A stretch of 63,628 nucleotides of DNA, counting the filler. It is 6 parts of 6 records of this genome, joined end to end, with 100 filler letters (N's around TTAATTAATTAA, not from the genome) between each part and the next. Parts side by side here need not be neighbours in the genome. Positions count along the whole stretch, not along the records: positions 57,440 to 63,628 come from SRR2962707_2799; 5 more parts are not named here. The stretch is one strand, 5' to 3'. Positions 11,320 to 63,628 of this stretch are shown here, one piece after another. Position 1 is the stretch's first letter; each line of letters starts with the position of its first letter. A program made the translations under genes and the position numbers. The notes under the pieces are model-generated. The model was given only the letters and a program-made list of their open reading frames with translations. It had not been told where the DNA came from and searched no databases.

Positions 11320-11334
11320 TGGGGCCTGAATGGG
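11320..11334. repeat. 15-nt direct repeat TGGGGCCTGAATGGG, copy 1
   Basis: Identical 15-mer at 14273-14287; both copies are intergenic. Confidence 0.7.
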
Positions 11335-11339
11335 GTTGG

Positions 11340-12254: not shown

Positions 12255-12258
12255 GGCC

Positions 12259-13233: not shown

Positions 13234-13259
13234 TGATGAAATTCCTTTTGCTGTATCGG

Positions 13260-14255: not shown

Positions 14256-14272
14256 AGTCTTCTCTCCAGGTT

Positions 14273-14287
14273 TGGGGCCTGAATGGG
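14273..14287. repeat. 15-nt direct repeat TGGGGCCTGAATGGG, copy 2
   Basis: Identical to 11320-11334. Confidence 0.7.
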
Positions 14288-14293
14288 TGATTG

Positions 14294-15280: not shown

Positions 15281-15291
15281 GGGACGCTCCA

Positions 15292-18190: not shown

Positions 18191-18208
18191 GCGACCCTCC
18201 ATCAGGCT

Positions 18209-19123: not shown

Positions 19124-19188
19124 CTTTCTCTTCCCTAACTTGACAAGAAAGCTCTTAAATTGGATGGCTTCATCCATCAGAATTTAAT

Positions 19189-19205
19189 CTGACTGTCAAC
19201 ATCAG
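19189..19205. promoter_or_regulatory. IRO/iron box (CTGA-N9-TCAG) in the divergent promoter of the iron island
   Basis: CTGActgtcaacaTCAG matches the TGA-N9-TCA RirA/Iron-Rhodo consensus; ACTTGAC half-site near 19138. Confidence 0.6.
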
Positions 19206-19219
19206 GATAAGAGGTTGTC

Positions 19220-20242
19220 GTGACCAGCGTGGTCGAGGGCATGAGCGGTATGGTTCGAGCGGACAGATCGCGCTGGCCGGTCTATGCAGCACTCGTGCTC
19301 GGCCTGGGCGTCGCCGTATTGGCCAGCCTGACCCTGGGCTATAAGCTCTATGGCCTGGACGAAGTCTGGGCGGCGCTGTTCGCCCATGATAGCTCTGAAA
19401 CCGCCACAGTGATTGCCGGTTTGCGTCTGCCGCGCGCCTTGATCGCACCGCTGGCTGGTGTAGCTTTGGGCATGGCCGGGGTGATGGTACAGACCCTTTC
19501 GCGCAATCGGATTGCGTCGCCCGACACGCTTGGCCTCAATGCCGGTGCGTCGATGGCCGTCGTATTGGCAACGGTGGTCTTTGGTGTCGGATCTTTGGCG
19601 GGCCTGTCGCTGGCGGCTGCGATCGGCGCGCTGTTGACCAGCATCATCGTCTTTGGCGTGGCGGCCGGGGCGGGGGGCTTGTCCCCACTCAAGATCGTTC
19701 TTGTCGGCGTGACCTTTGCGGGGCTTGCCCATGCGGTGGTCGAAATCGTACTCACCAGCAACGAAGCGCAGTTGCAGCAATTGCTGTTCTGGCTGTCCGG
19801 CGCCTTTGTCGACCGGCCGATCAGCCTGTTCTTCAACGGCTTGCCCGTTGTGCTGGTTGGGGCGGCGCTGGCCTTTACGCTGACTTCGGCCCTGGACGCG
19901 TTGCAGGCCGACGATGCGACGGCGGCCAGCCTCGGCGTGCCTCTGGTGGCGGTGCGGGGGCTGACTTTTATCGCGGTTTCGCTGCTGACAGGGGCGGCTG
20001 TGTCCATGGCCGGACCGGTGGCCTTTGTGGGGCTGGTGGTTCCGCATGCCGCACGGGGGCTGGTGGGGCTGCGCCATCGTCACCAGCTTGCAGCCGCCGC
20101 CTTGGTTGGTGCGATCTATACCACGCTGGCCGATGTCGCGGCCCGTTTCGTGATCTATCCCGTCGAGGCCCCGGTGGGCGCCATTACGGCGGTGGTGGGG
20201 GCCGGGACCTTGGTGCTGTTGCTGATGCGGAGGCTCGCGTGA
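19220..20242 (+). CDS. FecCD-family iron-siderophore ABC permease
   Basis: LRLPRA, QTLSRNRIASPDTLG, GPVAFVGLVVPH; exact start uncertain. Confidence 0.88.
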   Translation: MTSVVEGMSGMVRADRSRWPVYAALVLGLGVAVLASLTLGYKLYGLDEVWAALFAHDSSETATVIAGLRLPRALIAPLAGVALGMAGVMVQTLSRNRIASPDTLGLNAGASMAVVLATVVFGVGSLAGLSLAAAIGALLTSIIVFGVAAGAGGLSPLKIVLVGVTFAGLAHAVVEIVLTSNEAQLQQLLFWLSGAFVDRPISLFFNGLPVVLVGAALAFTLTSALDALQADDATAASLGVPLVAVRGLTFIAVSLLTGAAVSMAGPVAFVGLVVPHAARGLVGLRHRHQLAAAALVGAIYTTLADVAARFVIYPVEAPVGAITAVVGAGTLVLLLMRRLA

Positions 20243-21282
20243 GTGAGGTCGCGGCTATGCGCCGCCGGACGATGCCAGGGCCCACGACCATTGCCCTCCT
20301 GGCTGTGTTCGCTATCTTCGTTCTGCTGTTTCTTGCCGGCGTCGGTTTCGGTTCGACCTGGATACCGCTCGATACCGTCACCGGCATTTTGCTGGGTGGG
20401 GGCGAGCGGACCGACAGGCTGGTCGTTCTGCAATTGCGCCTGCCGCGCGTGCTGGCGGCGGCAATTGCGGGGGGCGCCATTGCCTATGCCGGTTATCTCC
20501 TGCAACGCATCACCCGCAACGAGCTCGCTTCGCCCGGTGTGCTGGGCGTGGTCGATGGTGCAGCGCTGGGCGTGGTGCTGTTTCTCGCCATCTTTTCCAA
20601 CGAATCCAATGCGCTCACCGTGCCGGTGGCCTGGCAGCCCCTGTCGGCGGCGATCGGAGCGATAAGCGCGATCGGACTGGTTTTCCTGCTCTCGGGGCGG
20701 CAAGCGTCCTCTGCGATCCGGCTGATCCTGTTCGGCATTGCCATTGCGGCGGTTGCAAAGGCGCTCACCACCATTTTCATGCTGATCGGGCCGATCTATC
20801 AGGCAGCCCAGGCCGCGCGCTGGCTGGCCGGGGCCGTCAACACCATCAATTGGAGCGAAGTCCAGATCATGCTGATGGTGCTGGTGCCGGTGGGAATCGT
20901 TGCCGGCGTTGCCGCGCGCAATCTGCCGCCGGCCGATCTGGATGATGTTTCCTCGCGCAGCATTGGCCTCAATCTGCCGGTCTATCGCATCATCATGTTC
21001 CTGCTCGCGGCCTTGCTGACAGCAGGTGCGGTTGCCTTTGCGGGTGGCGTCGGGTTTGTCGGGCTGATCGCGCCGCATATGGCTCGTCTGCTGGTCGGGC
21101 GCGGGCGGGTGCCTGGCATCGTCATGTCGATCCTGCTCGGGGCGATCATCCTGGTCGGCGCCGACCTCCTGATCCGCGTGGCCTTTGCGCCGCTTGAGGT
21201 GCCCGCCGGCACGGTGACCGCCATTATCGGGGCGCCCTATTTCCTCTATCTGCTCATGTGCAAGGACAACGGCAATGGATGA
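20239..21282 (+). CDS. FecCD-family iron-siderophore ABC permease
   Basis: LRLPRV, QRITRNELASPGVLG, GVGFVGLIAPH, IIGAPYFLYLL. Confidence 0.88.
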   Translation: MSEVAAMRRRTMPGPTTIALLAVFAIFVLLFLAGVGFGSTWIPLDTVTGILLGGGERTDRLVVLQLRLPRVLAAAIAGGAIAYAGYLLQRITRNELASPGVLGVVDGAALGVVLFLAIFSNESNALTVPVAWQPLSAAIGAISAIGLVFLLSGRQASSAIRLILFGIAIAAVAKALTTIFMLIGPIYQAAQAARWLAGAVNTINWSEVQIMLMVLVPVGIVAGVAARNLPPADLDDVSSRSIGLNLPVYRIIMFLLAALLTAGAVAFAGGVGFVGLIAPHMARLLVGRGRVPGIVMSILLGAIILVGADLLIRVAFAPLEVPAGTVTAIIGAPYFLYLLMCKDNGNG

Positions 21283-22072
21283 CCAGATCGCCAATCGGAT
21301 CGAGGTCAAGGCGTTGAGCCTGAGTTACGGGCCTGAAGTCGTGCTCGATGCGCTCAGCCTGCCGATCCCCAGCGGCCAGATCACGGTGCTGGCCGGTCCC
21401 AATGGTTGCGGCAAATCCACCCTGTTGCGCGCCATTCGCCGGCTGCATGCGCCGCAATCGGGGCAGGTGCTGCTCGACGCGGAAGATATTTCAAAGCTCA
21501 ATGGCAAGGCGCTGGGCCGCCGCATTGGCTTATTGGCGCAAAGCCCCAGCGCTCCGCAGGACATGACGGTAGAAGAGCTGGTGCGGCTGGGCCGCTATCC
21601 GCACCAGGCGATGATGCAGCCCTGGGGCGCGGGTGACGATGCGGCGGTTGCCGCAGCCATGGTGGGCACCGGGGTGGCCGAGATGCGGCAACGGCGTATC
21701 GGCTCACTATCGGGCGGGCAATTGCAGCGCGCCTGGATTGCCATGGTGCTGGCGCAGGAGACCGACGTGATCTGCCTTGATGAACCGGTCAATCACCTCG
21801 ACATGGCCCATCAACTCGATTGTCTCGAACTGGTGACCCGGCTCAACAAGGAGCAGGGCCGCACGATCGTCCTGGTGCTGCACGACCTGAACCTGGCCGC
21901 CCGCTATGCCGACCAGCTCGTTTTCGTCGCCGACGGCAAGGTGCGCGAGCGCGGGGCGCCAGAGACGATGATGCGTTCGGACCTGATCGAGGAGGTGTTC
22001 AATGTCACCGCCGAGATCATCATCGACCCGGTGCATAAACGCCCGATCTGCATTCCACACCGGCGCGGCTAG
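21275..22072 (+). CDS. Iron-siderophore ABC ATPase (FecE/FhuC-like)
   Basis: GPNGCGKST, LSGGQLQR, LDEPVNHLD, LHDLNLAARY. Confidence 0.9.
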   Translation: MDDQIANRIEVKALSLSYGPEVVLDALSLPIPSGQITVLAGPNGCGKSTLLRAIRRLHAPQSGQVLLDAEDISKLNGKALGRRIGLLAQSPSAPQDMTVEELVRLGRYPHQAMMQPWGAGDDAAVAAAMVGTGVAEMRQRRIGSLSGGQLQRAWIAMVLAQETDVICLDEPVNHLDMAHQLDCLELVTRLNKEQGRTIVLVLHDLNLAARYADQLVFVADGKVRERGAPETMMRSDLIEEVFNVTAEIIIDPVHKRPICIPHRRG

Positions 22073-22893
22073 AGTCGATAGATCCTTTTGGCGTTGGCGT
22101 TGAGCAGTTTTGTCTGCTCGTCAGCGCTGGCACCCTTGATGATCTCCCGCGTCGCGCCGACCCAGTCGGTTAGGGAACCGCCGAGTGTAACGACGGGGTG
22201 GTCCGAGCCCCAGACAATGCGGTCCCAGCCGAAGCTGTCGATGACGTGCTCGATATAGGGACGAATGGCTTCGAGCGTCCACTCCTTGCCGGCATAGGCG
22301 ATGATGCCGGAGATCTTGGCATTCAGATTTGGGCGCCGGGCGATTTCGGTGATGTGCTCACGCCAGGGAGAGAAACCGCCCACAGTGATGTCCTGCGCGC
22401 CGCAATGGTCGAGCACGAAGGTGACATCGGGGCAGCTATCGACCAGGGCCCGGCCAATGAGCAATTGGTTGTGGCGCACGCAGAGGTCGAAAGTCAGGTC
22501 ATGGGCCGCGAGACGCCGGACATTCGCGGCGAAATGGGGCGTCTGGCTCAGCGTATCGGGTGCCTGATGCAGGATGCGCCGTAGGCCGCGAACACCCGGC
22601 ACGGCGGCTAGACCTTCCAATTGACGTTCGAAGTCGGGGTTTTCCGGCCGGCATCCAGCGATAGCACCGGCTATGCCGTCCAGTTCCAGCACAAAACGCG
22701 ACTCTGCCTCTATGTCGCCTTCGTCGACATCGACCTCCATGTGCAGGGCCGCCTCGATGCCGAGCGGGCGTGCTTCGGCCAGGTAGTCCTCGATGCTCCA
22801 GGGGCGATTGATCGCCGGCGCACCCGAAAGCCAGGGATAGGCGAAGCGATCCGGATAGATCAGGTGCAGATGGGTATCGATGATCGGGATCAT
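22069..22893 (-). CDS. Amidohydrolase_2 family protein (sugar lactonase-like)
   Basis: IIDTHLH, GLRRIL, VLDHCG, AKISG, VWGSDHPV, NAKRIYRL. Confidence 0.8.
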   Translation of the reverse strand: MIPIIDTHLHLIYPDRFAYPWLSGAPAINRPWSIEDYLAEARPLGIEAALHMEVDVDEGDIEAESRFVLELDGIAGAIAGCRPENPDFERQLEGLAAVPGVRGLRRILHQAPDTLSQTPHFAANVRRLAAHDLTFDLCVRHNQLLIGRALVDSCPDVTFVLDHCGAQDITVGGFSPWREHITEIARRPNLNAKISGIIAYAGKEWTLEAIRPYIEHVIDSFGWDRIVWGSDHPVVTLGGSLTDWVGATREIIKGASADEQTKLLNANAKRIYRL

Positions 22894-22951
22894 GGCGCGG
22901 GCCTTGGTCGGTGTTATCTGGGTCTTCGAGTGCCGCATCGCTGGCACGGGG

Positions 22952-24298
22952 TCAACGCCGGACGCCGAGACGGTTCATTTTTTCGCTCAGGGTACGGCGC
23001 GGCACCTGCAAGGCGTCGGCGGCGGCGGCGATGGCGTTGTCATGGCGGTCGAGCTCGGCCTCGATCAGATGTCGTTCATAGGCGGCCACGCGCTCGGCCA
23101 GGCTGATCCCTGCGCTGGCGGGCGCCTTGTGGCCCAGAATATCTCCAATTGAGCGGCCTGTGGCGCCCAGCCCAAGCGCAAAGCGATCGGCGGCGGCCTT
23201 GAGCTCGCGGACATTGCCGGGCCAGCCATGCGCCAGCAAGGCATTGATATCTGCAGGATGCAGGGCAGGGGCCTGGCGGCCGAAGCGGCGTGAGGCTTCG
23301 GCCAGAAAATGGTGGAAGAGTATGACGCTGTCGTCGCCCCGATCCCGCAGCGGCGGCAGGTCGAGGGTGGCCATGTTGAGGCGATAATAAAGATCGGCGC
23401 GGAAGCGGCCGGCCTGGCTTTCTGCGTTCAGGTCGACCTTGGAGGCGGCAATGATGCGCAGGTCGAGAGGGATCTGCTTGTTAGAGCCGAGGCGCTCGAC
23501 CACGCGCTCCTGAATCACCCGAAGCACCTTGGCCTGGGCGAGCAGGGGCATGGATTCGATCTCGTCGAGCAGCAATGTGCCGCCATGGGCATATTCGAAC
23601 TTGCCGATGCGCTGGCCCGAGGCGCCGGTGAAAGATCCCGACTCATGGCCGAACAGCTCGCTTTCGATCAGCTCGGCCGGGATGGCGGCACAGTTGACGG
23701 CAACAAAAGGGCCCTTGGCGCGCGGCGAGAAGTCATGCAGGCAGCGGGCGACGACCTCCTTGCCGGTGCCGGTTTCGCCCAGAAGGATGATGTCGGCCGG
23801 GATCGGGGCGAGGTCGAGAACAGCGTGGCGCAGCGCCTGCATGGCCGGTGAAGCCCCGACCAGGCGGGTGGCCAACTCGTTTTCGCCCCCATCGAGCTTG
23901 CGGCGCAGGTCGGCAAGCTCGCGCTTGAGGCGTGCCTGTTCGGCCGCTCGGGTGATGGAATTGACCAATTGGTCCGGCACATAGGGCTTTTGCAGGAAAT
24001 CGAAGGCACCGGCGCGCATGGCCTCGACGGCCATGGGTACGTCGCCATGGCCGGTGATGAGGATAATTTCGGTGGGCAGGCCGCGCTCGGCAATTGAGCG
24101 CAGCAGGTCGAGGCCCGACAGACCCGGCATGCGCACGTCGGTCAGTACCACATGGGGATGAATATCATCGATGCTGGCCAGGGCCTCGCCTGCATCTGCC
24201 GCGGTAGCGGTCGCGAAGCCGGACAGGCGCAACCATTGTTCAAGCGCAGTGCGCATCATTTCTTCGTCGTCGACGATCAGGACGATTGGTTCATTCAT
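22952..24298 (-). CDS. dctD: Sigma54-dependent response regulator
   Basis: Receiver domain (VDDE, DVRMPG), AAA+ GETGTGKE, GSFTGA, FRADLYYRL, WPGNVREL, Fis HTH. Confidence 0.85.
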   Translation of the reverse strand: MNEPIVLIVDDEEMMRTALEQWLRLSGFATATAADAGEALASIDDIHPHVVLTDVRMPGLSGLDLLRSIAERGLPTEIILITGHGDVPMAVEAMRAGAFDFLQKPYVPDQLVNSITRAAEQARLKRELADLRRKLDGGENELATRLVGASPAMQALRHAVLDLAPIPADIILLGETGTGKEVVARCLHDFSPRAKGPFVAVNCAAIPAELIESELFGHESGSFTGASGQRIGKFEYAHGGTLLLDEIESMPLLAQAKVLRVIQERVVERLGSNKQIPLDLRIIAASKVDLNAESQAGRFRADLYYRLNMATLDLPPLRDRGDDSVILFHHFLAEASRRFGRQAPALHPADINALLAHGWPGNVRELKAAADRFALGLGATGRSIGDILGHKAPASAGISLAERVAAYERHLIEAELDRHDNAIAAAADALQVPRRTLSEKMNRLGVRR

Positions 24299-26133
24299 GC
24301 GGAAGCTCGTGCGGCGACACTGGCCGCCGGGGAAAGGGATATGGTGAAGGTACTGCCCTGGCCGGTTCTGGATTGCACATTGATGGTGCCACCGCTGTCG
24401 CGGACGAGGCCAAAGGAAATGGCCAGTCCCAGGCCAAGGCCTTTGCCGGCCGGCTTGGTGGTGAAGAATGGATCGAACAGGTTCGATATCTCTTCTGGCG
24501 CAATGCCCGTGCCGGTGTCGGCAATGGTGATCTCGACCGCGCCGGAGCGTTGCGTGACACCGATGGACAGGATGCGCATGGGCGCCTGCTGCATGGCGTC
24601 GGCGGCATTGGCGATCAGGTTGATCAGGACCTGTTCGAGATGCACAGGATTGGCCATGACCGCGATGGCCGGACGCGGGCGGCGATATTCGATATCCACA
24701 CCGACCTGGCGCAGACGATGATCGGTGAGTTCAAGGGCATTGGCGATGGCCGTGCCGATATCGGCCTGCATCGGCTCGCGGGTCTGCTTGCGGGCGAAGG
24801 TCTTGAGATGTCCGGTCAAGGTGGCCAGGCGTTCAACCACCTTGTCCATGGCCGCCAGCACCGGGCCCATTTCACTGCCGCCGCGCCGCTGGTCCAGCAG
24901 GCGGGCGCTGGCAAGATGGGTAGTGAGCGCCGCCACCGGCTGGCTGACTTCATGGGCCACGCCGGCCAGCGCTTGACCGAGGCTGGCGAGTTTGGCCGCT
25001 TGCACCAGATGCTCGCGGGCATCGTGTTCGGCTTTCTCGGCACGGACGCGTTCGGCTATTTCGGCGCGTAGCTGCTCATTGGTGGTGTGCAGGTCTTCGG
25101 TGCGCTCGGCCACGCGCATTTCGAGCTGGTTGTGATCGGCCAGGCGCTGGGCAACCAGGCGCCGTCGCTGTTCGAGCAGCACGATAATGAGCAGGACCGC
25201 CGCGCAGCCCAGGGCGGCGGCCGTCGCCATGGTGACGGCGCTGCCATAAAGCGGGGTGAGCGGCGAAAAGGAGAGGATGCGCCAAGCATGCTTGGGCAGG
25301 CGCAGCTCCTGCAGGACGAAATAGCCCGAGGTTTCCGGATCGCTGCCCGAGAGCAGGGCAAATTCGGCCCCACGCGAGTGCCAGCGATCGGTGATGATGC
25401 CACGATTTTCAACCCCGTTCTCGCCATAGCGCTGCTGGCCGGAAACAGCGGCAAACTGGGTCAGCGGGATGGTCTGGAGCGGGCGATAGCGCCAATCTGG
25501 CCTGGTGGATAGGATGACGACATCGTTGAGGTCGACAATGCCGATCAGTTCGCCTGAGCGCCACCAATTGGCTTCGATCTCGCCCAGATTGATCTTGATA
25601 ACAGCAACCCCAAGCGGTCCGTTTGGTCCCTCGACGCGCTGGGACAGGAACAGGCCCGGCACCCTTGTGGACATGCCGAAGGCGTAAAATTCTGCCCGGC
25701 CGCGCGCCATGGCGTCAGCAAAATACGGGCGGAACGAGTAATTGGTGCCGACCAGACTGGTCAGGGTCCACCAATTGCTGGCAGCGACCACGGCGCCGGA
25801 ATTGTCCATGAGAAAAATTTCGCTGGCGCCAGCGGTTTCATTGATCTGGCTGAGAAAGCCGTTGGCCGCTTCGATTGCACCGCTGTCGTCGGCGCTTTCC
25901 AGCACCGTGCGGGTTTCCCGGGCCTGCGAAATGGCCACCGGGAGATAGTGAAAGCGCTCGATAATGGCTTCGAGCGTGCGGTCGAACAGGGCGAGGCGCC
26001 GCTGCGCCTGTTCCTCGGCATCGCGCACGGCAGCGGTCAGGGTCAACTCGAACGCGACCCAAAAAACCATCAAAACGATGGCCAGACCCGCCGCGACAAG
26101 GGCGAGTTGGCGGCCTCCGATCCAGTTGCGCAT
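24295..26133 (-). CDS. dctB: DctB-like sensor histidine kinase
   Basis: TM + periplasmic Cache (GTNYSFRPYF) + TM; H-box LAGVAHEVSQP; FDPFFTTK, GLGLGL. Confidence 0.85.
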   Translation of the reverse strand: MRNWIGGRQLALVAAGLAIVLMVFWVAFELTLTAAVRDAEEQAQRRLALFDRTLEAIIERFHYLPVAISQARETRTVLESADDSGAIEAANGFLSQINETAGASEIFLMDNSGAVVAASNWWTLTSLVGTNYSFRPYFADAMARGRAEFYAFGMSTRVPGLFLSQRVEGPNGPLGVAVIKINLGEIEANWWRSGELIGIVDLNDVVILSTRPDWRYRPLQTIPLTQFAAVSGQQRYGENGVENRGIITDRWHSRGAEFALLSGSDPETSGYFVLQELRLPKHAWRILSFSPLTPLYGSAVTMATAAALGCAAVLLIIVLLEQRRRLVAQRLADHNQLEMRVAERTEDLHTTNEQLRAEIAERVRAEKAEHDAREHLVQAAKLASLGQALAGVAHEVSQPVAALTTHLASARLLDQRRGGSEMGPVLAAMDKVVERLATLTGHLKTFARKQTREPMQADIGTAIANALELTDHRLRQVGVDIEYRRPRPAIAVMANPVHLEQVLINLIANAADAMQQAPMRILSIGVTQRSGAVEITIADTGTGIAPEEISNLFDPFFTTKPAGKGLGLGLAISFGLVRDSGGTINVQSRTGQGSTFTISLSPAASVAARASA

Positions 26134-26178
26134 CAATGCGGCGATAGCCAGTTCTCCTCACTGGTTTATCAACGGTTT

Positions 26179-26226
26179 TGGCAAGATATTGCCAGCGGTA
26201 GGGCGTGAACTAGGCAATTTCTTGCC
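26179..26226. promoter_or_regulatory. Tandem GGCAA-N4-TTGCC palindromes, putative DctD enhancer sites
   Basis: TGGCAAgataTTGCCA 26179-26194 and GGCAAtttcTTGCC 26213-26226, 33 bp apart, upstream of a sigma54 promoter. Confidence 0.6.
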
Positions 26227-26279
26227 GAAAGTGTTATCATGATCGGCTTCAATTGCATATCTGCCTTGCAAATTTCGCG

Positions 26280-26295
26280 TGGCACGGCGTTTGCA
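26280..26295 (+). promoter_or_regulatory. Sigma54 (-24/-12) promoter of tctCBA
   Basis: TGGCAC-GGCGT-TTGCA, full consensus match. Confidence 0.85.
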
Positions 26296-26358
26296 GGGGA
26301 TGTGCCGGGCCTGGGGGAGGACATTCCAGGCCAATCCAATTGGGAGGATATCCAGAAC

Positions 26359-27342
26359 ATGAAAACCATCGTGAAGATGATTGCCGCCGGCCTGGTTGCC
26401 GGTTCAGCCCTGAGCGCCGCCGCCGTCGTGGCGCAGGACTATCCGACGCAGCCCGTGACCATCGTCGTGCCGTTCTCGGCCGGTGGCCCGACCGATACCG
26501 TCACGCGCCTGGTCGCCGCCGCCATGAGCGAGGATCTGGGCCAGCAGGTAGTGGTGCAGAATGTGGGTGGTGCCGGCGGTACGCTGGGTGTTGGTCAAGT
26601 GGCCGCTGCCGCCAATGACGGCTACACGCTGCTTCTGCATCATATCGGCATGTCCACCGCCCCGGCGCTCTACGCCAGCCTGCCTTATGAGCCGATGACC
26701 GATTTTGCGCCCATCGGGCTGGTCACCGAAGTGCCCATGACCATGGTAGCGCGCAAGGATTTCGAGCCGGCAACGCTCGAAGACCTGATCGCCTACGTCA
26801 AGGAGAATGGCGAAAACGTCACCTATGCCAATGCCGGCATTGGTGCGGCCAGCCAGCTCTGCGGCCTGCTGTTCCAGGATGCGCTTGAGACCAAGCTGAC
26901 CGAAGTGCCCTATCAGGGTACCGGCCCGGCCATGACCGACCTGCTCGGCGGCCAGATCGACATGATGTGCGACCAGACCACCAATACAACCAGCCAGATC
27001 CAGGCCGGCGAGATCAAGGCCTATGCTGTGACGACGCCGGAACGCATCGCCGTGCTGCCGGACGTTCCGACCATGGCCGAGGGTGGCGTCGAGAACTTCA
27101 ACCTCTCGATCTGGCACGGACTCTATGCGCCCGCCGGCACCGACCAGGCCATCATCGACCGCCTGACCCAGGCTCTGCAGGCCGCTTTGGCCGATGAGAC
27201 CGTTGGCAACAGCTTTGCCGAGCTGGGCACCTATCCCGTGCCGGCAAGCGAAGCCACGCCCGATGCGCTTGCGGAAAAGCTCGAAGGCCAGACGGCCCTC
27301 TGGGCCGAGGTGATCGCTGCGGCCGGCGTTGCCGCGCAGTAA
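26359..27342 (+). CDS. tctC: Tripartite tricarboxylate transporter substrate-binding protein (Bug/TctC)
   Basis: YPTQPVTIVVPFSAGGPTD, NVGGAGG, VPYQGTGPA, LPDVPT; GGAGG SD. Confidence 0.88.
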   Translation: MKTIVKMIAAGLVAGSALSAAAVVAQDYPTQPVTIVVPFSAGGPTDTVTRLVAAAMSEDLGQQVVVQNVGGAGGTLGVGQVAAAANDGYTLLLHHIGMSTAPALYASLPYEPMTDFAPIGLVTEVPMTMVARKDFEPATLEDLIAYVKENGENVTYANAGIGAASQLCGLLFQDALETKLTEVPYQGTGPAMTDLLGGQIDMMCDQTTNTTSQIQAGEIKAYAVTTPERIAVLPDVPTMAEGGVENFNLSIWHGLYAPAGTDQAIIDRLTQALQAALADETVGNSFAELGTYPVPASEATPDALAEKLEGQTALWAEVIAAAGVAAQ

Positions 27343-27352
27343 ATCCGAACTG

Positions 27353-27381
27353 GAGCTCCCGTCCCATTGGGGCGGGAGCTC
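27353..27381 (+). terminator. Stem-loop after tctC (mRNA stabiliser or partial terminator)
   Basis: GAGCTCCCGTCCC-ATT-GGGGCGGGAGCTC. Confidence 0.55.
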
Positions 27382-27403
27382 TTGTGAATAGGGAGGGGGA
27401 CGC

Positions 27404-27865
27404 ATGGCACTGAACGCGTCGCGAAACGACCTGGTATCGGGGGCGATCTTCATCGCATTCGGCGCCTATTTTGCGCTGGAAGCCCTGCGCTATGATTTCG
27501 GCACGCCGTTTCGCATGGGCCCCGGCTTCATGCCGGTGGTGCTGGGCGGTATCCTGATCGCGCTGGGCATAGCGGTGGCCGCCAAGGGGATGGGAAAACC
27601 CGATGAAGAGGCGGCCCCGCCTTGGCCATTGCGCGGCATCGTGCTTGTGCTTGGCACAATCCTGTTTTTCGCGGCGACCATTCGCGGGCTCGGCTTTATC
27701 CCCGTGGTGCTGATTGCTGCCTTTGCCACGGCCCTGTCTTCAAGCCGGAACACCTGGCTTTCATCGCTGATCATCTCGGCCGGCTTGTGCGTTCTCTGCC
27801 TTCTGATCTTCGTGGTGGGGCTGGGCATGATCGTGCCGCTGATCGGCCCCTGGCTGCGGTTCTAG
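27404..27865 (+). CDS. tctB: TctB family small membrane subunit
   Basis: GTPFRMGPGFMP, about 4 TM helices, lies between tctC and tctA. Confidence 0.85.
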   Translation: MALNASRNDLVSGAIFIAFGAYFALEALRYDFGTPFRMGPGFMPVVLGGILIALGIAVAAKGMGKPDEEAAPPWPLRGIVLVLGTILFFAATIRGLGFIPVVLIAAFATALSSSRNTWLSSLIISAGLCVLCLLIFVVGLGMIVPLIGPWLRF

Positions 27866-27875
27866 GAGCGACATA

Positions 27876-29381
27876 ATGGACCTTTTTGCTTCGCTCGGGC
27901 TCGGCTTTTCGGTCGCCCTCGACCCCACCAACATTCTCTACTGTTTCATCGGCGTGCTGCTGGGCACATTGGTGGGTGTGCTGCCGGGCATCGGGCCGAC
28001 GGCGACCATTGCCATGCTGTTGCCGATCACCTTTTCGCTGAACCCGGAAACCGCACTGATCATGCTGGCGGGCATTTATTACGGTGCCCAATATGGCGGG
28101 TCGACCACTGCCATTCTGATCAATTTGCCGGGTGAAAGCTCGGCGGCGGTGACCGCGATCGACGGCTACCAGATGGCCCGCCAGGGCCGTGCCGGTCCGG
28201 CGCTGGCGGCGGCGGCACTCGGCTCCTTCTTTGCGGGGTCGGTAGCGACTTTCCTCCTCGCTGCCTTTGCGCCGCCGCTTGCGCGGGCTGCGCTCAATTT
28301 CGGGGCGCCGGAATATTTCTCGCTGATCGTCCTGGGCCTGCTGGTTTCCATTGCGCTGGCGCATGGCTCGATCATCAAGGCGCTGGGCATGATCGTGCTG
28401 GGGCTGCTGCTGGGCATGGTGGGGCAGGATATCTATACCGGCACGCCGCGCTTCACCTTTGGCTTGCGTGAATTGTTCGGCGGGCTCAATTTTGTCGCCG
28501 TGGCGGTGGGCGTGTTCGGGGTGGCGGAAATCCTGCGCAATCTCGAAAACGAACATGAGCGCGAAGTCGGCGTCAAAGCGGTCAAGAACCTCTGGCTGAC
28601 GCGCGACGATCTCAAGCGCATCGTCATGCCGGTGCTGCGCGGGACCGGTATCGGCTCGCTGCTGGGCGTGCTGCCTGGTGGCGGGCACATCCTTTCGGCC
28701 TTCGCCTCATACTCGGCGGAGAAGCGCCTGTCGAAGCACCCCGAAGAGTTCGGCAAAGGCGCTATCGAAGGCGTGGCGGGGCCGGAATCGGCGAACAATG
28801 CCGCAGCCCAGACCTCGTTCATTCCGCTGATGACGCTGGGCATCCCGGCACACCCGGTCATGGCACTGATGATCGGGGCGTTTATCCTGCAAGGCATTAC
28901 GCCGGGACCCAACGTCATCAATGAACAGCCGGCGCTGTTCTGGGGCATCATCGCCTCGATGTGGATCGGCAATTTGCTGCTGGTCGTGCTCAACCTGCCC
29001 TTGGTGGGGTTGTGGGTAAAGATGCTCTCGATCCCCTATCGGGTGCTGTTCCCAGCCATCGTGCTGTTCGCTTGTATCGGCACCTTTTCGATCAACCAGA
29101 ATATCTACGACATCTATGCCATCGCCTTCTTCGGCATCGTGGGCTATCTGCTGATCCGCTTCGGCTGCGAGCCGGCGCCACTCTTGCTCGGCTTCGTGCT
29201 GGGGCCGCTGCTGGAAGAGCATTTGCGGCGCGCCATGATCATCTCGCGCGGCGATCCGTCGATCTTTGTCACCCGGCCGATCTCGGCAACCTTGCTGGTG
29301 CTGGCTCTGGCAGCCGTGCTGGTGGCGGTGCTGCCTGCAATCCGCAAGAAACGGGCCGAGGTGTTTGTCGAAGAGGACTGA
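27876..29381 (+). CDS. tctA: TctA family permease
   Basis: GVLPGIG, GAQYGGSTTAILINLPG, GVAGPESANNA, TLGIP. Confidence 0.92.
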   Translation: MDLFASLGLGFSVALDPTNILYCFIGVLLGTLVGVLPGIGPTATIAMLLPITFSLNPETALIMLAGIYYGAQYGGSTTAILINLPGESSAAVTAIDGYQMARQGRAGPALAAAALGSFFAGSVATFLLAAFAPPLARAALNFGAPEYFSLIVLGLLVSIALAHGSIIKALGMIVLGLLLGMVGQDIYTGTPRFTFGLRELFGGLNFVAVAVGVFGVAEILRNLENEHEREVGVKAVKNLWLTRDDLKRIVMPVLRGTGIGSLLGVLPGGGHILSAFASYSAEKRLSKHPEEFGKGAIEGVAGPESANNAAAQTSFIPLMTLGIPAHPVMALMIGAFILQGITPGPNVINEQPALFWGIIASMWIGNLLLVVLNLPLVGLWVKMLSIPYRVLFPAIVLFACIGTFSINQNIYDIYAIAFFGIVGYLLIRFGCEPAPLLLGFVLGPLLEEHLRRAMIISRGDPSIFVTRPISATLLVLALAAVLVAVLPAIRKKRAEVFVEED

Positions 29382-29766: not shown

Positions 29767-29866
29767 NNNNNNNNNNNNNNNNNNNNNNNNNNNNNNNNNN
29801 NNNNNNNNNNTTAATTAATTAANNNNNNNNNNNNNNNNNNNNNNNNNNNNNNNNNNNNNNNNNNNN
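29767..29866. other. Artificial contig linker
   Basis: N44-TTAATTAATTAA-N44. Confidence 0.98.
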
Positions 29867-41199: not shown

Positions 41200-41299
41200 N
41201 NNNNNNNNNNNNNNNNNNNNNNNNNNNNNNNNNNNNNNNNNNNTTAATTAATTAANNNNNNNNNNNNNNNNNNNNNNNNNNNNNNNNNNNNNNNNNNNN
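41200..41299. other. Artificial contig linker
   Basis: N44-TTAATTAATTAA-N44. Confidence 0.98.
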
Positions 41300-51996: not shown

Positions 51997-52096
51997 NNNN
52001 NNNNNNNNNNNNNNNNNNNNNNNNNNNNNNNNNNNNNNNNTTAATTAATTAANNNNNNNNNNNNNNNNNNNNNNNNNNNNNNNNNNNNNNNNNNNN
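51997..52096. other. Artificial contig linker
   Basis: N44-TTAATTAATTAA-N44. Confidence 0.98.
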
Positions 52097-57339: not shown

Positions 57340-57439
57340 NNNNNNNNNNNNNNNNNNNNNNNNNNNNNNNNNNNNNNNNNNNNTTAATTAATTAANNNNN
57401 NNNNNNNNNNNNNNNNNNNNNNNNNNNNNNNNNNNNNNN
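57340..57439. other. Artificial contig linker
   Basis: N44-TTAATTAATTAA-N44. Confidence 0.98.
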
Positions 57440-57467
57440 TCACTCACTCACTCACTCACCCACTCAC
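57440..57467 (+). repeat. (TCAC)n microsatellite at contig start
   Basis: TCACTCACTCACTCACTCACCCACTCAC. Confidence 0.8.
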
Positions 57468-57468
57468 A

Positions 57469-59678
57469 ATGAGCGGCGGTATCTTTCGCCTTCCACCTCT
57501 GTTTGCAGCGACTGCTGCAGTTGCTTCAGCCGCAGCAAGTGGCACTTCCGGAGACTTGCTGAGCGCTAGCTGGCGCGCAAGTGAAGCAACGGAGTTTGTA
57601 GTCGTGGCTCACGAGTCACTCGCCGACTGGAAGCGCCAGGAAGAGAGCGACGAAGGAGGACTGCTGCTCGTCGGAGCGAAACGGGACGCTTCTTTAGGCA
57701 GCAGCAGTAGCGACGGTGGGCACGCACGGTTTCGGTCGATGCTGGACTCGCTCGAGCGGGTGCCAGTGACCTACCTGAACGGTCAACGCAGTGTCTGCTT
57801 CTTGCCACCGCCTCCTGAGGTTGTTGCTGCGGCTTCGAAAAAATCTGCAGCGCAGGCAGCTCAAGAACGAGCAGCAGCTGCTGCTGCGTCAGGAGCTGTG
57901 GAGATTGACGCGGATAAGGCCGCTGCGGTGGCCGCTCGTGTGCGACGTTTCGAAGGCAAATGCGCGACAATGCCGGATGGGTATTGGCATTATGCTGTGT
58001 GCCCTTTTGACAAGGTGCGACAATTCCACCCGAATCCGAAAGGAAAGCCGAGCAGCGAGTTCAATTTGGGAACATTCAACCAGACAGAGTCCATGGAAGT
58101 GCCAGCCTTCTTAGCCAAGCGTGGTGGTGTTTTTTCGGCTTACACGCAAAAGTTTTCAGGTGGGACAGAAGGCCGTGAAACACAAGTACGTGTGGTGAGG
58201 CGATCGGGTATTGAATCGGAAGGAGACAGTGCTCGGAGGGTTGTTATCGGGCATTACTTTGGGTGGGTGATGATGACTGTCTTGCTTGTTGATACTTGAA
58301 TCAGGTTCACTTCGTTTGCAGTGGTTCAGCACTGGACCCGTCCCCGGAGCGACATCCCACCGATACCCGTGGAGCTATTGGAGCGACCAGGGGGCATGGA
58401 TCACTGGTGATTGCCAAGGTGGAGGAGGACCCGCAGCATGTGTCCGTACAGACTGGCAGCCGAGCACGACAATGGTTGCTCACAATTCTCCTCAAGCCTG
58501 TAGCATTCCGTCTCACCTCCCGCATTTTTATGACCGACCATAGGTATCATATCACAGTGGTAACGTCAGACGTGTGTGGGGTAAGTGAATCACCGCAACA
58601 ACTTATTGCAGGCGCTCCTACTGATTGCCTGCGACATGTCGGTTCGTGGTGGACCGCGGAGATTTGTCCATTTCGGCGAGTCCGACAGTATCACAAGGTA
58701 CGCCAAGGTCTTCCTTTCTTGATCATCGACCGGGCAAACCTATGTGCTCTTAATCTCGAGAAACTGTTCTGGTTCTGTAATGTCCTGCGCTTTCCTGCCC
58801 CCTTTCAAGGAACACGATGGGTCTCGGACAGAAATTTCCCTTGGGATGCCGAAGGAAGAATCAGGCATTCTGGTTGCCACCCCTAAACAAGCTATTGCCG
58901 CAGCACACAACTTGCGCAGGTAGGAAGTTACCACATTGGCCTCGACACCAAAAGTTTTGCCGGTTTGATGCACGGTTCTATGCTTCGGAACACGGTGTGA
59001 TATATGTTTTGCTGTTCCACCGGTATGTTGCCATAGGTACCTCCTCGCATCCAACCAGAACACAGGTCCTGAGGCACAAGCCAGGGTCGACGCGATGGTA
59101 ACTGCTGTGGGTGGTGACCCGCTTCCGTATTTTGAAGAGGTCTTCACGAGTGGTTCCCCATGTGGCGTTGGGCCGGACGCTCCTCGACGCGCAACTGTTG
59201 TGCGGTGCGTAAAGTAGCTCACGTACATTCCTGACCCCGTTTTTCGCACAGTTCCATTGTTCACTATTCTGGTTTTTTTTCATGGCAGGTATTTCTGTGA
59301 CGGTGAGGACAATGAACCAACTTCGATAGGCACGACGCATGCGGGTGGAAGCGACGATCCAGATTTTTTTCGAGTGGAGTCAGCTGAATTTCGATCTATT
59401 GATGGTTTCAAGGAGGTTGCTGAATGCTTGTGAGTAGGACCCTCCGCACACTCTTGACAGTTCTTTGTGTGGCTTCGGTCCAGTTGGGTCCTAAATTTTG
59501 CTATTCCAACGTCAATCACAGGTATAAAGTGGACCTTCGACTCCCTGAGTTGTGCCTCCACCCAGCTTTTCATCACCAAAGGAACACGCCATCGGAGACA
59601 CATACACTGTCAAAAATAAACTGTGTTCCGGCGGATGACCTCGAAGAAGGCGCCCGCGAGAGAGCTGCGTCGACTTAA
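57469..59678 (+). CDS. Eukaryotic OS-9/erlectin-like ER lectin with two MRH domains, 7 exons
   Basis: Exons 57469-58185, 58305-58441, 58544-58697, 58810-58919, 59037-59204, 59289-59429, 59522-59678 join in frame through GT-AG introns; motifs GYWHYAVCPFDKVRQFH, WWTAEICPFRRVRQYH, RRATVVRYFC, ECLYKVDLRLPELCLHPAF. Confidence 0.8.
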
Positions 59679-59846
59679 TGCTTGGCCCTGCGATTGTAGA
59701 ACATAAATTATGATATTATGCAATGAAGGCAGAGACTGCTTGCTACTTCCTGGGCAGCTACCGTTTGTTGGCCATTTTAGCATACGTGTAAGCCTAACAG
59801 TAGCAGCCAACATCCGAGAACAAGTATCAACAGTTAGCGACTTTGC

Positions 59847-62800
59847 TCACATGCGCAGAATGCTGGCGCATGTCAGCAGGTGTACAAAAAAAGTGCATTG
59901 TCCCACGACTACTGTAAAGGCGTGATCACGCACCGCTGCTCCGCGGGAACCACTGGTGCTGGCGCTGGCGCTGGCGCTCCTCCTGCTGCTGCTGCTGCTG
60001 CTTGATGTCTTTCTATCATTTGTTCCGCCGCGTGTAGGGTAGCTACTTGAAGACGAAGCTCGACTTTCTGCCAGCTGCTTTCGGATAACATCGTCGACCT
60101 GCTTCTCCCAACCAAAGTCGAGACCAGTCATTTCGTAGAATCGTTGATTGTGAGGTTGGAAAAAGTTTTTGAGCCCCCGTAGCACTTGAATAGAAGGCTT
60201 CTCGTGCTTGCCCTTGCTGTTTGTATTGGAAATTGTCACAGAACCGTCGTCTTTGTGAATATCTACCCTTGGGACCCCGATGTGATCAGTGATCCTGTCG
60301 ATATTGCTCTGCACGCCCTCGGCGCTGTTTTCCATGTCCTCAAATGACAGAAACAAAAACTGTTCAATGGGGAAATACTGCAGCCAGCGGTACAACTGAT
60401 GATGGTAAATACTAACTGCCAAGTACCTACACAAATCCAGACAGGCAGCATCAGATGAGAGGTCGACATGAATTCGTAAAAAAAGCTGGCACATGCACTG
60501 AAAAAAGTGGAAATCACATGGATGTCAGGGGTCAACGTGCGAATTCAGTGGAACGGGCTCAATGCTGTGACGGTAATTAAGGTTCTTGAGGGCAGGGTAG
60601 CAGAACTCGAATTTTTCGTTTGCCATTTCTGCGTCGAGGCACGACGGGTCATCAAGGCCTTGCTGCAGTTCACTCACAATGGCCTGTGGCGAAAAATAAA
60701 GGAAAATAATCAAAGGTTCGAACCAGGCTTCCCAAGTAAACCTCGCAACACATGAAGCCTCCCCACGCAAAAAAAACTGCTTGCCTCCTGGAAAGTGGCG
60801 TGTGGCTCCCGGCCGCTCATGAGATAACGCTCCATTCGCCAGTGAGAAAATGCTCGTAATATGGGATTACGAAGAGTGACGATAATTTTTGCGTTGGGCG
60901 CGGTCTCGAACATGCGGCGTGGGGCCTACAACCGAAGCATCGCACAGGTGTAATCCAGTGATCCTTTTGTGCTGTATCCAAACAACTAAATTTTCCGCCA
61001 CGCCACTGCACGACTTTTTGTGGGCACGCACCTGCGGATGCATGAAGTAGCGAACGCTCGCCTCGCCGGTGATAGCATTGAGGCCGGCTGGGAGTGGTGG
61101 CATGACTTCTGCATAGTGCCGATCGTACTTGCCTTTCCAGTTGAGAAAGTTCAGTTCTTTGTCATCCCAAGTCTCCCACAGCATGATGTTGTCATGCCTC
61201 TTCAGGTTGTCAAAAAGTGTTGTGGACCCACTGCGCGGTGCTCCGATTAGCACAAAACTTGGAAGGCAGTTCAGCTTCACAGCACTACGGCTGGACGTTG
61301 CGGGTGTTTTTTGCCAGCAAGAGGCGTTAAGTTGGACCTGGATGTCAGAGCGAAGATCCTGTGCATTGGGGGGAATATTGTGCGGGGCCCTTTTTTTGTG
61401 CTCACGGAACACCCATGCCAATGTTTCATCATTGTCTTCTGTCCAATCGAACTAAAAACCGCACGGTATTGCGACGCAGTCAATTGGACCAGCAGCCTGC
61501 ACATGCAGACACATAACTTCAGTGACTTGTATGCGAAGTGCATGCACGCACCTGCAGAGTTGGCACAAGCCAATTGTGGTATGCAGCCATTTCTTCGCGG
61601 CCAAGTTTGTGATATACGCTTATCATGTTGTTGATGAGAGTACCCGAGCGTGGATTGTGCTCCACAAAGTACTCGTACACCTCGATGGCCTTCTGGTTGT
61701 CACCACTCTGGTACCTACAGTTACGACCGTGCAAACAACAATGAAGCCATAGGCAATTCGATAATATGGCAGCGCACCCAACCATCATTTTCCGTTCAGT
61801 TAGTCAGCACTGACAGCGGTGGCAAGCCGACACAACGCACTGGTGAATATCAGCTAAATTAATGATTCCTTTGATGTTGTCCGGCTCTTGCATTAATGCT
61901 TGTTCAAACAGGTGGCGAGCACGCGGCCAATTCTCCTCCCGATAATACCTTTCAGCCATACAGTTCAACCGAGCATCACGTAACTTCAAAGCATCCACCT
62001 GCCAAGCATTGATGACGCGAATACTCAACATAATCTAAGAATGTTCGGAGCGTGTGTACGTGACTCACCAGTACCCCCAGTTGTTGAGCGCAAAGCCGGT
62101 ATTTGTGGCGCGGAACCGCTGGGCGTTCGTGTAAAGGGCAACTGTGTTCGTCCAAGGACGGGACGCCGCTCGCGTCAAAACCACGAGCAAGCCCAATACC
62201 AAAAGAACGGCACCAATCTTCACAACGTCCGCGGTGCGTTTGGCGAAGTACCCTTTGACGAACAGAAGTGCGGAAACTGGTGCCATGACAAGGGCTGGCA
62301 AATAATGGTAACGATCTGCTCCCATAGTCAACACACCATGCTGCACTATACCAATGGCAGGAAGGCTCCAAGTGATGTAAAACACCCATGCCGCAGAAGC
62401 AACGAAACTAGGCGAAAGCAGCTGCGCAATGGCGGCTTCGTTGCCACCCTTAGCTCCAGAGGCCTCCTCGTACTTTGTTTCTGCGCCAGGCGCGTTTTTT
62501 TTGCCAGTGGCACCCCGTGATTTTTTCTCATCCGATGTGGATGTGGCAGAGGCCGGTGTAGCAGTAGCAGCAGCGAGGTCGCGCAGAAACACGAACACGG
62601 CAATCACCGTCGCGAGTGGAATCAAGACGCACGGCAATATATACTCGGCCGTGTCGAATCGCAATGGGTTCTCTCCGTTCTCCAGTGCATAGTGAGGCAT
62701 GTGTTGCGAAGGCCAAAAGGTCATGCGAAAGTAGAATCCCAGGGCCCAGCATGCACGGATAAAGCGGTCCTTGACGGTCAGGCAAACCCCAGGCGTGCGC

Positions 62801-63628
62801 AAATTTTCGCAAGGGTCATCGCCGGGAGCCGCCATGCGCACGCAGAAGATAGCAAGCGCGACGAAGAGAAGTTTGTCCGCAAAGGCACCGAACGGATTCA
62901 GCCACTTTTGCACAGGCAGCAACCTTCGCGGGCGCGTGAATGCATCGATGAAGAGGAAGCCAAAAAGGGTGGAGATAGCCGGTGTCTTGCAGGCAAGGGC
63001 AAGAAATAGAAGTACGGCGGCACCTCCATAATTCAGGATGCGCAGGACGACATGGCGTGCCGTCAGGTAATGATAATAGCATAACATGCTGCCCACCACA
63101 AAAACGATCCCAAAATTGTACGAAATGCACGAAATCCACCCGACAACCTCTGCGCGTAGAGGGTGAAGCGTCCACACAATTGCGCCGAAAGCACAAGCCA
63201 AACCTTGCACACGACGATTGTTCGGACAAAGATGTTCACCCAGCACAGTGAGGCAGAGTCGGTACAGGAGCGCACCGCCAGTGGCATGGGAAAAAATCTG
63301 CACGTCGCGCCAACGGCTGGCGTTCAAGTCGAAGCAGTACCACACGATTGCTTTAAGAAACCACGCGACAGGCTCCCACACGTCCAGGTGCTTGGAATTC
63401 CACATCCACTCGAGGTGTTCCTTGGAAAACCCTTTGTACGCGTTGTTGTGGACAAAATTGTCTTCATCGTCCAGGGTCACGAACTGCTTCTCCCCGTCCT
63501 CCGCAACGTTGGTGGCGAAACTGGCAATGCTCAGCGCGTACACCAGGCCAAACACGGCGGCAAATTCGAGAAGAGCCGAGTTGAACAGCGGGCTCGCGGA
63601 AGAAGAAGAAGCAGAAGAAGAAGAAGAA
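59847..63628 (-). CDS. Eukaryotic spliced gene: TMTC-like GT-C glycosyltransferase + TPR repeats + PAPS-dependent sulfotransferase (5'-truncated)
   Basis: Exons 63628-62069, 61948-61841, 61714-61552, 61451-61032, 60925-60785, 60683-approx 60541, 60426-59847. GT-C motifs LDD, HPLRAEVVGWIS, LACK, ADRYHYLP; TPR NNWGYWYYREENWPRARHLFEQALMQEPDN; sulfotransferase IGAPRSGSTTL, GEASVRY, LRNPILRAFSHW, FFQPHNQRF. Confidence 0.7.

Follow-up and report, generated by a model that had tools for sequence, protein, structure and literature searches.

The gene and its transcript

The DNA analysed here is a stretch of 63,628 nucleotides (the window). Its last piece (57440–63628), which spliced RNA identifies as eukaryotic, carries a spliced gene on the minus strand. 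This gene runs from the window end at 63627, where its 5′ end is cut, to a TAG stop codon at 59760–59758, and lies wholly within that single piece; the prokaryote genome G001 has no match to it. One spliced mRNA contains one open reading frame (ORF) of at least 1020 residues, in which a GT-C-fold membrane domain is followed by about three TPRs, a Cys-containing linker and a sulfotransferase of the type that uses 3′-phosphoadenosine-5′-phosphosulfate (PAPS). An earlier note, made from the sequence alone, had proposed a single gene in which a domain with many transmembrane (TM) helices continues in frame into TPRs and then a sulfotransferase; the spliced RNA and three relatives described below bear this out.

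The gene model was assembled by script from stop-to-stop frames together with direct reading of the sequence, and it comprises eight exons and seven introns (Table 1). The 3063-nt coding sequence is in frame, has a single terminal stop and translates to 1020 residues. The start codon lies outside the model. Relatives start 13–30 residues upstream of the equivalent point, so the 5′ end of the gene is cut by the window end. The donor sequence is GTGCGT in four of the seven introns and GTGAGT in one, and introns 5 and 6 are of the GC-AG type. For intron 5, this assignment was made because none of the placements within the ambiguity of its RNA joint yields GT. The earlier note had implied six introns of 100–126 nt. 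All six are real, but two are GC-AG rather than GT-AG and a seventh of 140 nt had to be added. The limit at 59847 (minus strand) that it gave for the coding sequence corresponds to the stop of a read-through into this seventh intron; the true end is about 90 bases further, at the TAG codon given above.

The transcript was analysed using two sequencing runs of one organism that contain this stretch, X1 and X2, compared over 57500–63628. Run X1 behaves as DNA, with contigs colinear with the window and 0 joints. None of the listed runs is recorded as RNA; the label of X2 as RNA is a guess, made only on the grounds of its intron-skipping contigs. A third run, X3, a marine metagenome, shares a small proportion of the sequence words (0.05) and underlies none of the claims made here. 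There are 11 X2 joints on the stretch and all are at intron borders, six at GT..AG introns of a convergent plus-strand gene and five at introns of the minus-strand gene. Contig record 10 of X2 (2066 nt) covers 63203 (exon 1) to ~60586 (exon 6) and lacks introns 1–5 exactly, within the ambiguity stated for each joint. It therefore includes the splice 61552|61451, which reads ...VPTLQ|FDWTED... in frame and connects the TPR part to the sulfotransferase part. This junction, across a 100-nt GT-AG intron (61551–61452), had been singled out in the earlier note as the key one, and an RNA check had been suggested across 62069–61032; contig 10 passes through this region spliced and does not end after the TPR exons. 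Only a pre-mRNA covering both halves can give rise to an in-frame splice between them.

The 3′ part of the transcript is represented by contig record 9 of X2, whose end coincides exactly with the first base of exon 7 (60426). In this contig, 77 record bases span 59795–60011 of the window (217 bases). Thus 140 bases are missing, and intron 7 is implied. The exon 6–exon 7 joint is absent among the RNA joints listed for X2, and intron 6 was placed by other means (Table 1). An alternative intron 6 (...ttggcag, donor c|gtcac) was rejected: it would remove RHSIEPVPLNS, which is conserved in the relatives P0011 and P0027.

A homologue search with exon 1 scored 8000 candidates, of which 26 proteins reached E ≤ 0.001. 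The closest of these, P0001–P0004 (53–66% identity), are genomic ORFs interrupted where the window has intron 1 or intron 3, and the C-terminal end of P0002 (...AQVR) is a read-through of a GTGCGT donor. Two transcript-derived EukProt proteins of Incisomonas marina (Stramenopiles, Bigyra, Nanomonadea), P0011 and its isoform P0183, include the final TM helices and the TPRs together with an entire sulfotransferase. Our model aligns with them at 60–62% identity (62% over 547 residues for one of them) and gap-free at every splice junction. P0027 is an uninterrupted ORF of 1014 residues on a 3509-nt contig, with 64% identity over 985 columns, and its alignment is gap-free across the exon 6–exon 7 junction. 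A search for longer homologues returned one protein, P0027, among 7999 scored candidates, which is weak evidence on the rarity of the fused form.

More distant relatives preserve the same order of domains. In P0008–P0010 (~40% identity) the membrane domain, the TPRs and the linker (ADWSEDADETMAW...LNAQCWQK...NCL) are read continuously, and the TPR-linker junction lacks an intron. The contigs L003 and L004 are DNA of the P0008 lineage, with an ORF for the TM, TPR and linker parts that extends up to ...NCL|GTAAGT. In this lineage the ORF is followed by a single 125-nt phase-0 GT-AG intron (3977–4101) and then by a sulfotransferase ORF of 330 residues starting PSFAVLGAPRAATTT. The joined protein is 39% identical to our model over 995 columns. 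Judged by these alignments, the fusion is present in four sequence lineages, whose introns lie at different positions. This architecture has been retained within a small clade of stramenopile-like marine eukaryotes.

Two neighbouring genes, or an artefact of the gene model or of assembly, would mimic such a fusion with no fused protein being made. The window consists of pieces joined by runs of N and holds bacterial DNA elsewhere, and the RNA evidence is an assembled contig from a run whose identity as RNA is a guess. However, the gene lies inside one piece, the DNA run X1 is colinear with it, and the splice 61552|61451 is present in frame in the RNA contig. The same continuity is found in the Incisomonas transcripts, in P0027 and in the L003 lineage, and P0008–P0010 are intronless at the TPR-linker junction. 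Based on this, we regard an artefact or a pair of separate genes as highly improbable.

Table 1. Features of the fusion gene and its convergent neighbour; positions count along the window
Feature	Position	Strand	Content and evidence
Exon 1	62069..63627	-	5′ partial, 519 aa; 11-TM GT-C-fold glycosyltransferase domain and beginning of TPR 1 (predicted from gene model, AF2, fold search and family alignment)
Motifs in exon 1	63474-63457; 63165-63148; 62994-62980; 62319-62302	-	DD motif LDDEDN; HPLRAE; K214 (ACKTP); ADRYHY
Intron 1	61949..62068	-	120 nt, GTGAGT..AG; RNA joint 61946/62067, cut +2
Exon 2	61841..61948	-	Remainder of TPR 1 and beginning of TPR 2; TPR_19 E 1.7e-4, TPR_2 E 2.2e-4 (exon alone, below cut-off)
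Intron 2	61715..61840	-	126 nt, GTGCGT..AG; RNA joint 61712/61839, cut +2
Exon 3	61552..61714	-	TPR 2-3; C-terminal end ...LVPTLQ
Intron 3	61452..61551	-	100 nt, GTGCGT..AG; key junction between TPR and sulfotransferase parts; RNA joint 61451/61552
Exon 4	61032..61451	-	Cys-containing linker (NASCW 61328-61314, NCLPSF 61271-61254) and N-terminal part of sulfotransferase
Sulfotransferase motifs in exon 4	61247-61215; 61166-61146	-	5′-PSB loop IGAPRSGSTTL (residues 679-689); DDKELNF
Intron 4	60926..61031	-	106 nt, GTGCGT..AG; RNA joint 60924/61031, cut +1
Exon 5	60785..60925	-	3′-PB motif LRNPILRAFSHW 60874-60839 (residues 768-779); Sulfotransfer_3 profile 118-144, Sulfotransfer_1 profile 88-124
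Intron 5	60684..60784	-	101 nt, GC-AG (GCAAGC..CACAG); RNA joint 60681/60783, ambiguity 4
Exon 6	60541..60683	-	Sulfotransferase insert with conserved Cys pair (SCLDAEMANEKFEFCYP)
Intron 6	60427..60540	-	114 nt, GC-AG (GCACGT..TGTAG); placed from gap-free P0011/P0183/P0027 alignment across ...PLNS|YLAVSIYHH and end of RNA contig 9 at 60426
Exon 7	59934..60426	-	C-terminal half of sulfotransferase and Ser-rich tail; Sulfotransfer_1 profile 138-190, E 4e-4
Intron 7	59794..59933	-	140 nt, GTGCGT..TTAG; outside the coordinates of the earlier note; 140 bases absent from RNA contig 9
Exon 8 (coding part)	59758..59793	-	...AYTYAKMANKR and stop TAG 59760-59758
Convergent neighbour gene	57469..59678	+	7 exons, six GT-AG introns by RNA joints; separate from fusion gene

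The protein of the convergent neighbour has two lectin motifs resembling MRH/PRKCSH (PRKCSH E 1.3e-10, 42.4 bits against a cut-off of 27); it resembles glucosidase II beta and OS-9 in its MRH domain, and a similar Cys motif occurs a second time. The neighbour's transcript overlaps with the fusion gene at the 3′ end of the latter, and the two were merged during RNA assembly. The pieces of the window are joined by paired 44-N runs at 6225–6324, 29767–29866, 41200–41299, 51997–52096 and 57340–57439. In the piece 6325–29766, the tested part (8001–28000) matches contig C24 of the prokaryote genome G001 at 98% identity along its entire 20 kb, and its G+C content is 62–64% compared with 53% in the last piece. 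Based on this match, bacterial DNA occurs in the same window as the eukaryotic fusion gene. The remaining pieces gave single matches only to G001, at 66–74% identity.

The membrane domain and its relatives

A family alignment of 146 sequences was used to model the membrane domain with AlphaFold2 (AF2), resulting in a pLDDT of 89.1 and a pTM of 0.90. In a VIA-align comparison of this model with 48,161 representative solved chains, ranks 1–20 were all of the GT-C fold (Z 17.3–8.8, 299–359 residues aligned) and rank 21 had a Z of 6.2. These 20 entries correspond to 17 glycosyltransferases and three GPI-transamidases, whose chain U we take to have a GT-C-like fold. The Z scores were 17.3 for AglB, 15.6 for STT3B, 15.0 for Pmt1, 14.8 for Pmt4, 14.7 for ALG12 and for ArnT, 13.7 for PglB and 8.8 for PimE; AftD, AftB, ALG3, the three GPI-transamidase entries, ALG9, AftA, GPI-MT-I, DPY19, EmbA/B and ALG6 ranked between the last two. 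The top rows of a Foldseek search were AglB, ArnT, DPY19, STT3 and Pmt4, with weak E values (3e-3) and a probability of 1.00. According to the model, the N-terminal domain clearly adopts the GT-C fold.

Profile searches were less telling for this part of the protein. Pfam matched only the TPRs and the sulfotransferase in full-length P0027 at E ≤ 1, with no DUF1736 or PMT match. NCBIfam gave TPR-type matches only on the membrane domain, and a PDB profile search with the family alignment A1 was dominated by TPR proteins and returned nothing on the membrane part. A HMMER scan of 1.84 billion representatives identified 4920 proteins at E ≤ 1e-3, 1043 at E ≤ 1e-10 and seven at E ≤ 1e-30; most of the matches listed are proteins of 500–800 residues with ~25–34% identity over query residues ~20–350. 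Those relatives outside the clade that have a source name or an Atlas taxon, identified by word-index search and from Atlas clusters, are bacterial TM+TPR proteins. Among 12 of the more distant relatives scanned with Pfam at E ≤ 1, none matched DUF1736 and one (P0150) had sub-threshold matches to PMT_2 and PMT. A protein-language look-alike search also led to bacterial TM/TPR clusters, including one in which 18% of the members have PMT_2, and, at 0.94–0.95, to diatom clusters named “DUF1736 domain-containing”.

These TM+TPR proteins, bacterial where named, are the nearest relatives of the membrane domain outside the clade. They share the same conserved residues, and in the 12 scanned the TM part is also without a Pfam match above threshold. 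However, they end in TPRs, with no sulfotransferase among the 21 of the listed matches that were scanned, whereas the fusion gene is eukaryotic and has spliceosomal introns. Across the 146-sequence alignment, D53, P86, P156 and W164 are invariant and the window has all four. It also keeps 19 of the 19 residues conserved in at least 90% of the sequences (D54, N61, W74, W89, H114, H155, L157, R158, E160, K214, D228, P306, P423, G426, D438, R439, Y440, Y442 and W492). The acidic motif of GT-C enzymes in the first extracytoplasmic loop (EL1) is represented by D53-D54 after TM1, within FVTLDDEDNF. The loop after TM8 contains a low-complexity insert rich in Ala, Ser, Thr and Lys (~62580–62410, minus strand; residues ~350–405), which is modelled as disordered (pLDDT ~50) and varies in length and sequence among the orthologs.

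The earlier note had described the domain as TMTC-like. The metazoan TMTC1-4 belong to the GT-C/PMT clan and are protein O-mannosyltransferases of the endoplasmic reticulum (ER) for cadherins. To our knowledge, a sulfotransferase domain has not been described in any TMTC, and its presence in our protein is one difference between the two. Another is the number of TPRs, about three in the fusion protein compared with a long array in TMTCs. What they share is an N-terminal multi-TM GT-C domain followed by C-terminal TPRs. The scheme proposed for TMTCs has 11 TM helices, a cytosolic N-terminus, lumenal TPRs and, within the DUF1736 loop that connects TM7 to TM8, a hydrophobic non-membrane helix, and human TMTCs match TMTC_DUF1736 at E < 1e-30 (Eisenhaber et al, 2021, PMC7801869). 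The word “sulfotransferase” occurs 0 times in that paper (PMC7801869).

A similar arrangement is predicted for the fusion protein. The helix list of the model, hydropathy and charge fit 11 TM helices with the N-terminus inside and the C-terminus outside. In the short loops placed on the cytosolic side, the ratios of K+R to D+E are 2:1, 2:0, 5:1 and 2:0, compared with 7:12 for EL1. The least hydrophobic of the long helices (residues 285–304; 0.83) is located in the TM7-TM8 loop, in keeping with the non-membrane helix of the TMTC scheme. Based on this and by analogy with TMTCs, the N-terminus is predicted to be cytosolic, and the DD loop, the TPRs and the sulfotransferase are all predicted to be lumenal.

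We also compared motifs with Table 4 of PMC7801869, by eye and not by alignment to actual TMTC sequences. The TMTC motif M1 (DD) is present in EL1. M2 (SHKSYRP) is kept only loosely, as KHLDVWEP. M3 (RxD) corresponds to R158-A-E160 after TM3, and M4 (KE(T/Q)xxT) to K214-T-P-A-I-S after TM5, where the Lys is kept and the Glu is not. M5 (DW) is absent, and M7 (ERxxY) appears as D438-R-Y-H-Y before TM10. The GT-C fold, the predicted 11-TM scheme and the DD, R-x-(D/E), Lys and (E/D)RxxY elements speak for a likeness to TMTCs. On the other side are the lack of a Pfam match to TMTC_DUF1736 (PF08409) or PMT even at E ≤ 1, the two changed positions proposed as metal ligands, the short TPR part and the 500–800-residue length of the nearest outside relatives, which are bacterial where named. 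We call the domain a putative GT-C-fold enzyme with TMTC-like architecture, belonging to a large TM+TPR subfamily, and not a TMTC in the Pfam sense.

The TPR part that follows is short, with ~3 repeats at roughly residues 511–610 of the model. An ortholog matches consensus-TPR structures over ~90 residues (E 6e-15), and the structure model of P0183 has six helices in this region. The linker after the TPRs contains two conserved Cys residues (in NASCW and NCLPSF), and the ortholog alignment shows conserved Cys pairs in a loop, in the linker and in the sulfotransferase, in keeping with the predicted lumenal placement.

The sulfotransferase domain and its partners

Single exons of the window gave sub-threshold Pfam matches to successive parts of the Sulfotransfer_1 and Sulfotransfer_3 profiles. 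The relatives passed the cut-offs: P0027 matched Sulfotransfer_1 at 46.9 bits (cut-off 22) and Sulfotransfer_3 at 40.8 (cut-off 27), P0183 matched Sulfotransfer_1 at 37.8 bits over profile positions 3–248 of 255, and the L003 ORF matched both families, at 27.3 and 29.1 bits. The best solved relatives by sequence were the heparan-sulfate 3-O-sulfotransferases 3-OST-5 (E 5.8e-8), 3-OST-1 and 3-OST-3 (to 2.5e-6), an Alicyclobacillus sulfotransferase and the sulfotransferase domain of NDST. Look-alike clusters comprised haptophyte and diatom sulfotransferases and animal 3-OSTs. A structure model of P0183 was built from a 14-row alignment and has low confidence (mean pLDDT 59, pTM 0.47), and of its fold matches only that of the sulfotransferase was used, with caution. 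With this low-confidence model, the best Foldseek match was 3-OST-3 (E 3e-10, TM-score 0.69–0.73), and the first 18 of 18 listed rows were 3-OST, NDST or one bacterial sulfotransferase, followed by TPR proteins.

In the alignment with 3-OST-1, GAPRSGST of the 5′-phosphosulfate-binding (5′-PSB) loop pairs with GVRKGGTR, which places R683 at the position of the loop Lys, and KELNFLNW pairs with NEVHFFDW, which places E709 opposite the Glu. This Lys and this Glu have catalytic roles in 3-OST-1. The 3′-phosphate-binding (3′-PB) motif RNPxLRAFSHW is kept in all orthologs, and both IGAPRSGSTTL and LRNPILRAFSHW are conserved in P0027, P0183 and P0174. Our domain resembles 3-OST-1, 3-OST-3, 3-OST-5 and NDST in the 5′-PSB loop, the Glu of (K/N)E.(H/N)FF and the 3′-PB RNPxxRxxS motif, and these proteins are its best solved relatives in sequence and, judged by the low-confidence model, in fold. 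It differs from them in having an Arg for the Lys and an extra Cys-containing insert, with an identity of 20–24%; its carrier is a polytopic GT-C enzyme, whereas theirs is a single-pass type II anchor; and nothing points to heparan sulfate in the organisms that carry the fusion. By sequence, the C-terminal domain is a Sulfotransfer_1/3 domain that appears to be nearest to the heparan-sulfate 3-O-sulfotransferases. Both the sulfotransferase motifs and this resemblance had been noticed in the earlier note and hold up, the motifs at the positions given in Table 1.

A paralogous sulfotransferase occurs in P0174 and P0180 (891 and 905 residues, from a marine eukaryote), where it is fused to a long series of EF-hands and the GT-C/TPR module is absent. 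It is 46–49% identical to the domain described here, and the NAxCW...CLPSF linker ahead of it and its Cys pattern are shared, whereas the N-terminal part is different. At least two different N-terminal parts have thus become linked to the sulfotransferase cassette.

These comparisons bear on whether both halves of the fusion protein are catalytic. The fusion could be real with one half active, the GT-C domain serving as an anchor or scaffold, or the sulfotransferase as a module that binds PAP(S) or sulfated glycans. Such a role would agree with the Arg in place of the Lys in the 5′-PSB loop and with the variation of the loop and base region in the L003 lineage. It would also agree with the same cassette being attached to EF-hands in P0174, and with the TMTC metal-ligand motifs of Table 4 (PMC7801869) not being kept. 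However, the window has the four invariant and 19 near-invariant residues of its GT-C family, including DD, HPLRxE, K214 and DRYxY. The changed “metal” positions are also non-TMTC in the consensus of the 146 sequences, and therefore appear to be a trait of the family and not decay. The sulfotransferase, for its part, keeps the R...S motif of the 3′-PB site and the aligned Glu, and active sulfotransferases with Arg in the PSB loop exist. On balance, we consider it unlikely that one of the two halves is inactive.

A possible coupling of glycosylation and sulfation

A mechanism that accounts for both halves can be outlined. The polytopic GT-C half would transfer a sugar from a polyprenyl (dolichyl)-phosphate donor onto an acceptor at the lumenal face. 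This acceptor may be a protein or glycan that is secreted or exposed at the surface, and the TPRs would probably recruit it. The tethered sulfotransferase would then use lumenal PAPS to sulfate the added sugar or a neighbouring sugar on the same acceptor. The 3-OSTs and NDST are lumenal enzymes, and NDST sets a precedent by combining two glycan-modifying activities on one Golgi polypeptide.

We favour a coupled function because the fusion and its linker are conserved over ~40% divergence and both halves are predicted to be on the same side of the membrane. We infer, reasonably in our view, that one enzyme glycosylates and then sulfates one target. The best explanation of the data, and one that we consider probable without being confident of it, is that a single lumen-facing GT-C, TPR and sulfotransferase protein would act in these two steps on the same acceptor.

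Several observations weigh against this explanation. No Pfam family matched exon 1 of the window at E ≤ 0.1, and the two positions for which a role as metal ligands has been proposed in TMTCs (DW, and the E in KExxT) are changed. The topology is based solely on hydropathy, charge and analogy, with the helices taken from a list of the model without coordinates. An assembled RNA contig is not one single molecule. In the sulfotransferase, the 5′-PSB loop has Arg where Lys is expected, and in the lineage of ~40% identity (L003, 4102–5094, plus strand) the loop reads GAPRAATTT and the DKELNF stretch RRDYLT (DKEL to RRDY), so that the clade as a whole does not strictly share the presumed catalytic set. 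The paralogous sulfotransferase with the same linker stands on EF-hands in P0174, and the GT-C partner is therefore dispensable for the cassette. Finally, dolichol-donor GT-C enzymes act in the ER, but the usual site of PAPS import and of carbohydrate sulfotransferases is the Golgi, so the meeting of both substrates in one place is a problem.

Both halves could instead be active on different molecules or in unrelated steps, for example with the sulfotransferase acting on a polysaccharide or a different class of glycan while the GT-C/TPR part keeps it at the membrane and in the correct compartment. This possibility would be in line with the other partner of the cassette in P0174, with the closest solved relatives acting on long heparan sulfate chains and not on single O-linked sugars, and with a TPR region of ~3 repeats. 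Set against it is the retention of the fusion and linker over ~40% divergence in four sequence lineages, which coupled function explains more easily, and we give such separate activities only a small chance.

Returning to the coupled two-step enzyme, a more specific version can be proposed, in which a single lumenal enzyme would place a lipid-donated sugar onto a TPR-held protein or glycan acceptor and its 3-OST-like half would at once sulfate that very sugar. This would constitute a one-polypeptide pathway to sulfated O-glycans in marine heterotrophic stramenopiles. We offer this version as a tentative one, which may well not hold in all its parts.

Both domains are of known kinds and their combination appears to be new: in a literature search conducted partly without full texts, we found no description of a GT-C/TMTC-like enzyme fused to a sulfotransferase. 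The significance of the finding is bounded by the small clade in which the fusion occurs and by this familiarity of the two domains. GT-C enzymes of the TMTC type and their numerous TM+TPR relatives are poorly understood, and the fusion provides a clue, by association on one polypeptide, to the fate of their products. If the coupled activity is real, the fusion would act as a Rosetta stone, hinting that products of the TMTC-like GT-C/TPR family can be sulfated, and PAPS and a polyprenyl-phosphate sugar would have to meet in one compartment. Incisomonas marina is a named species with a EukProt transcriptome, in which a sulfated hexose on secreted proteins or glycans is predicted.

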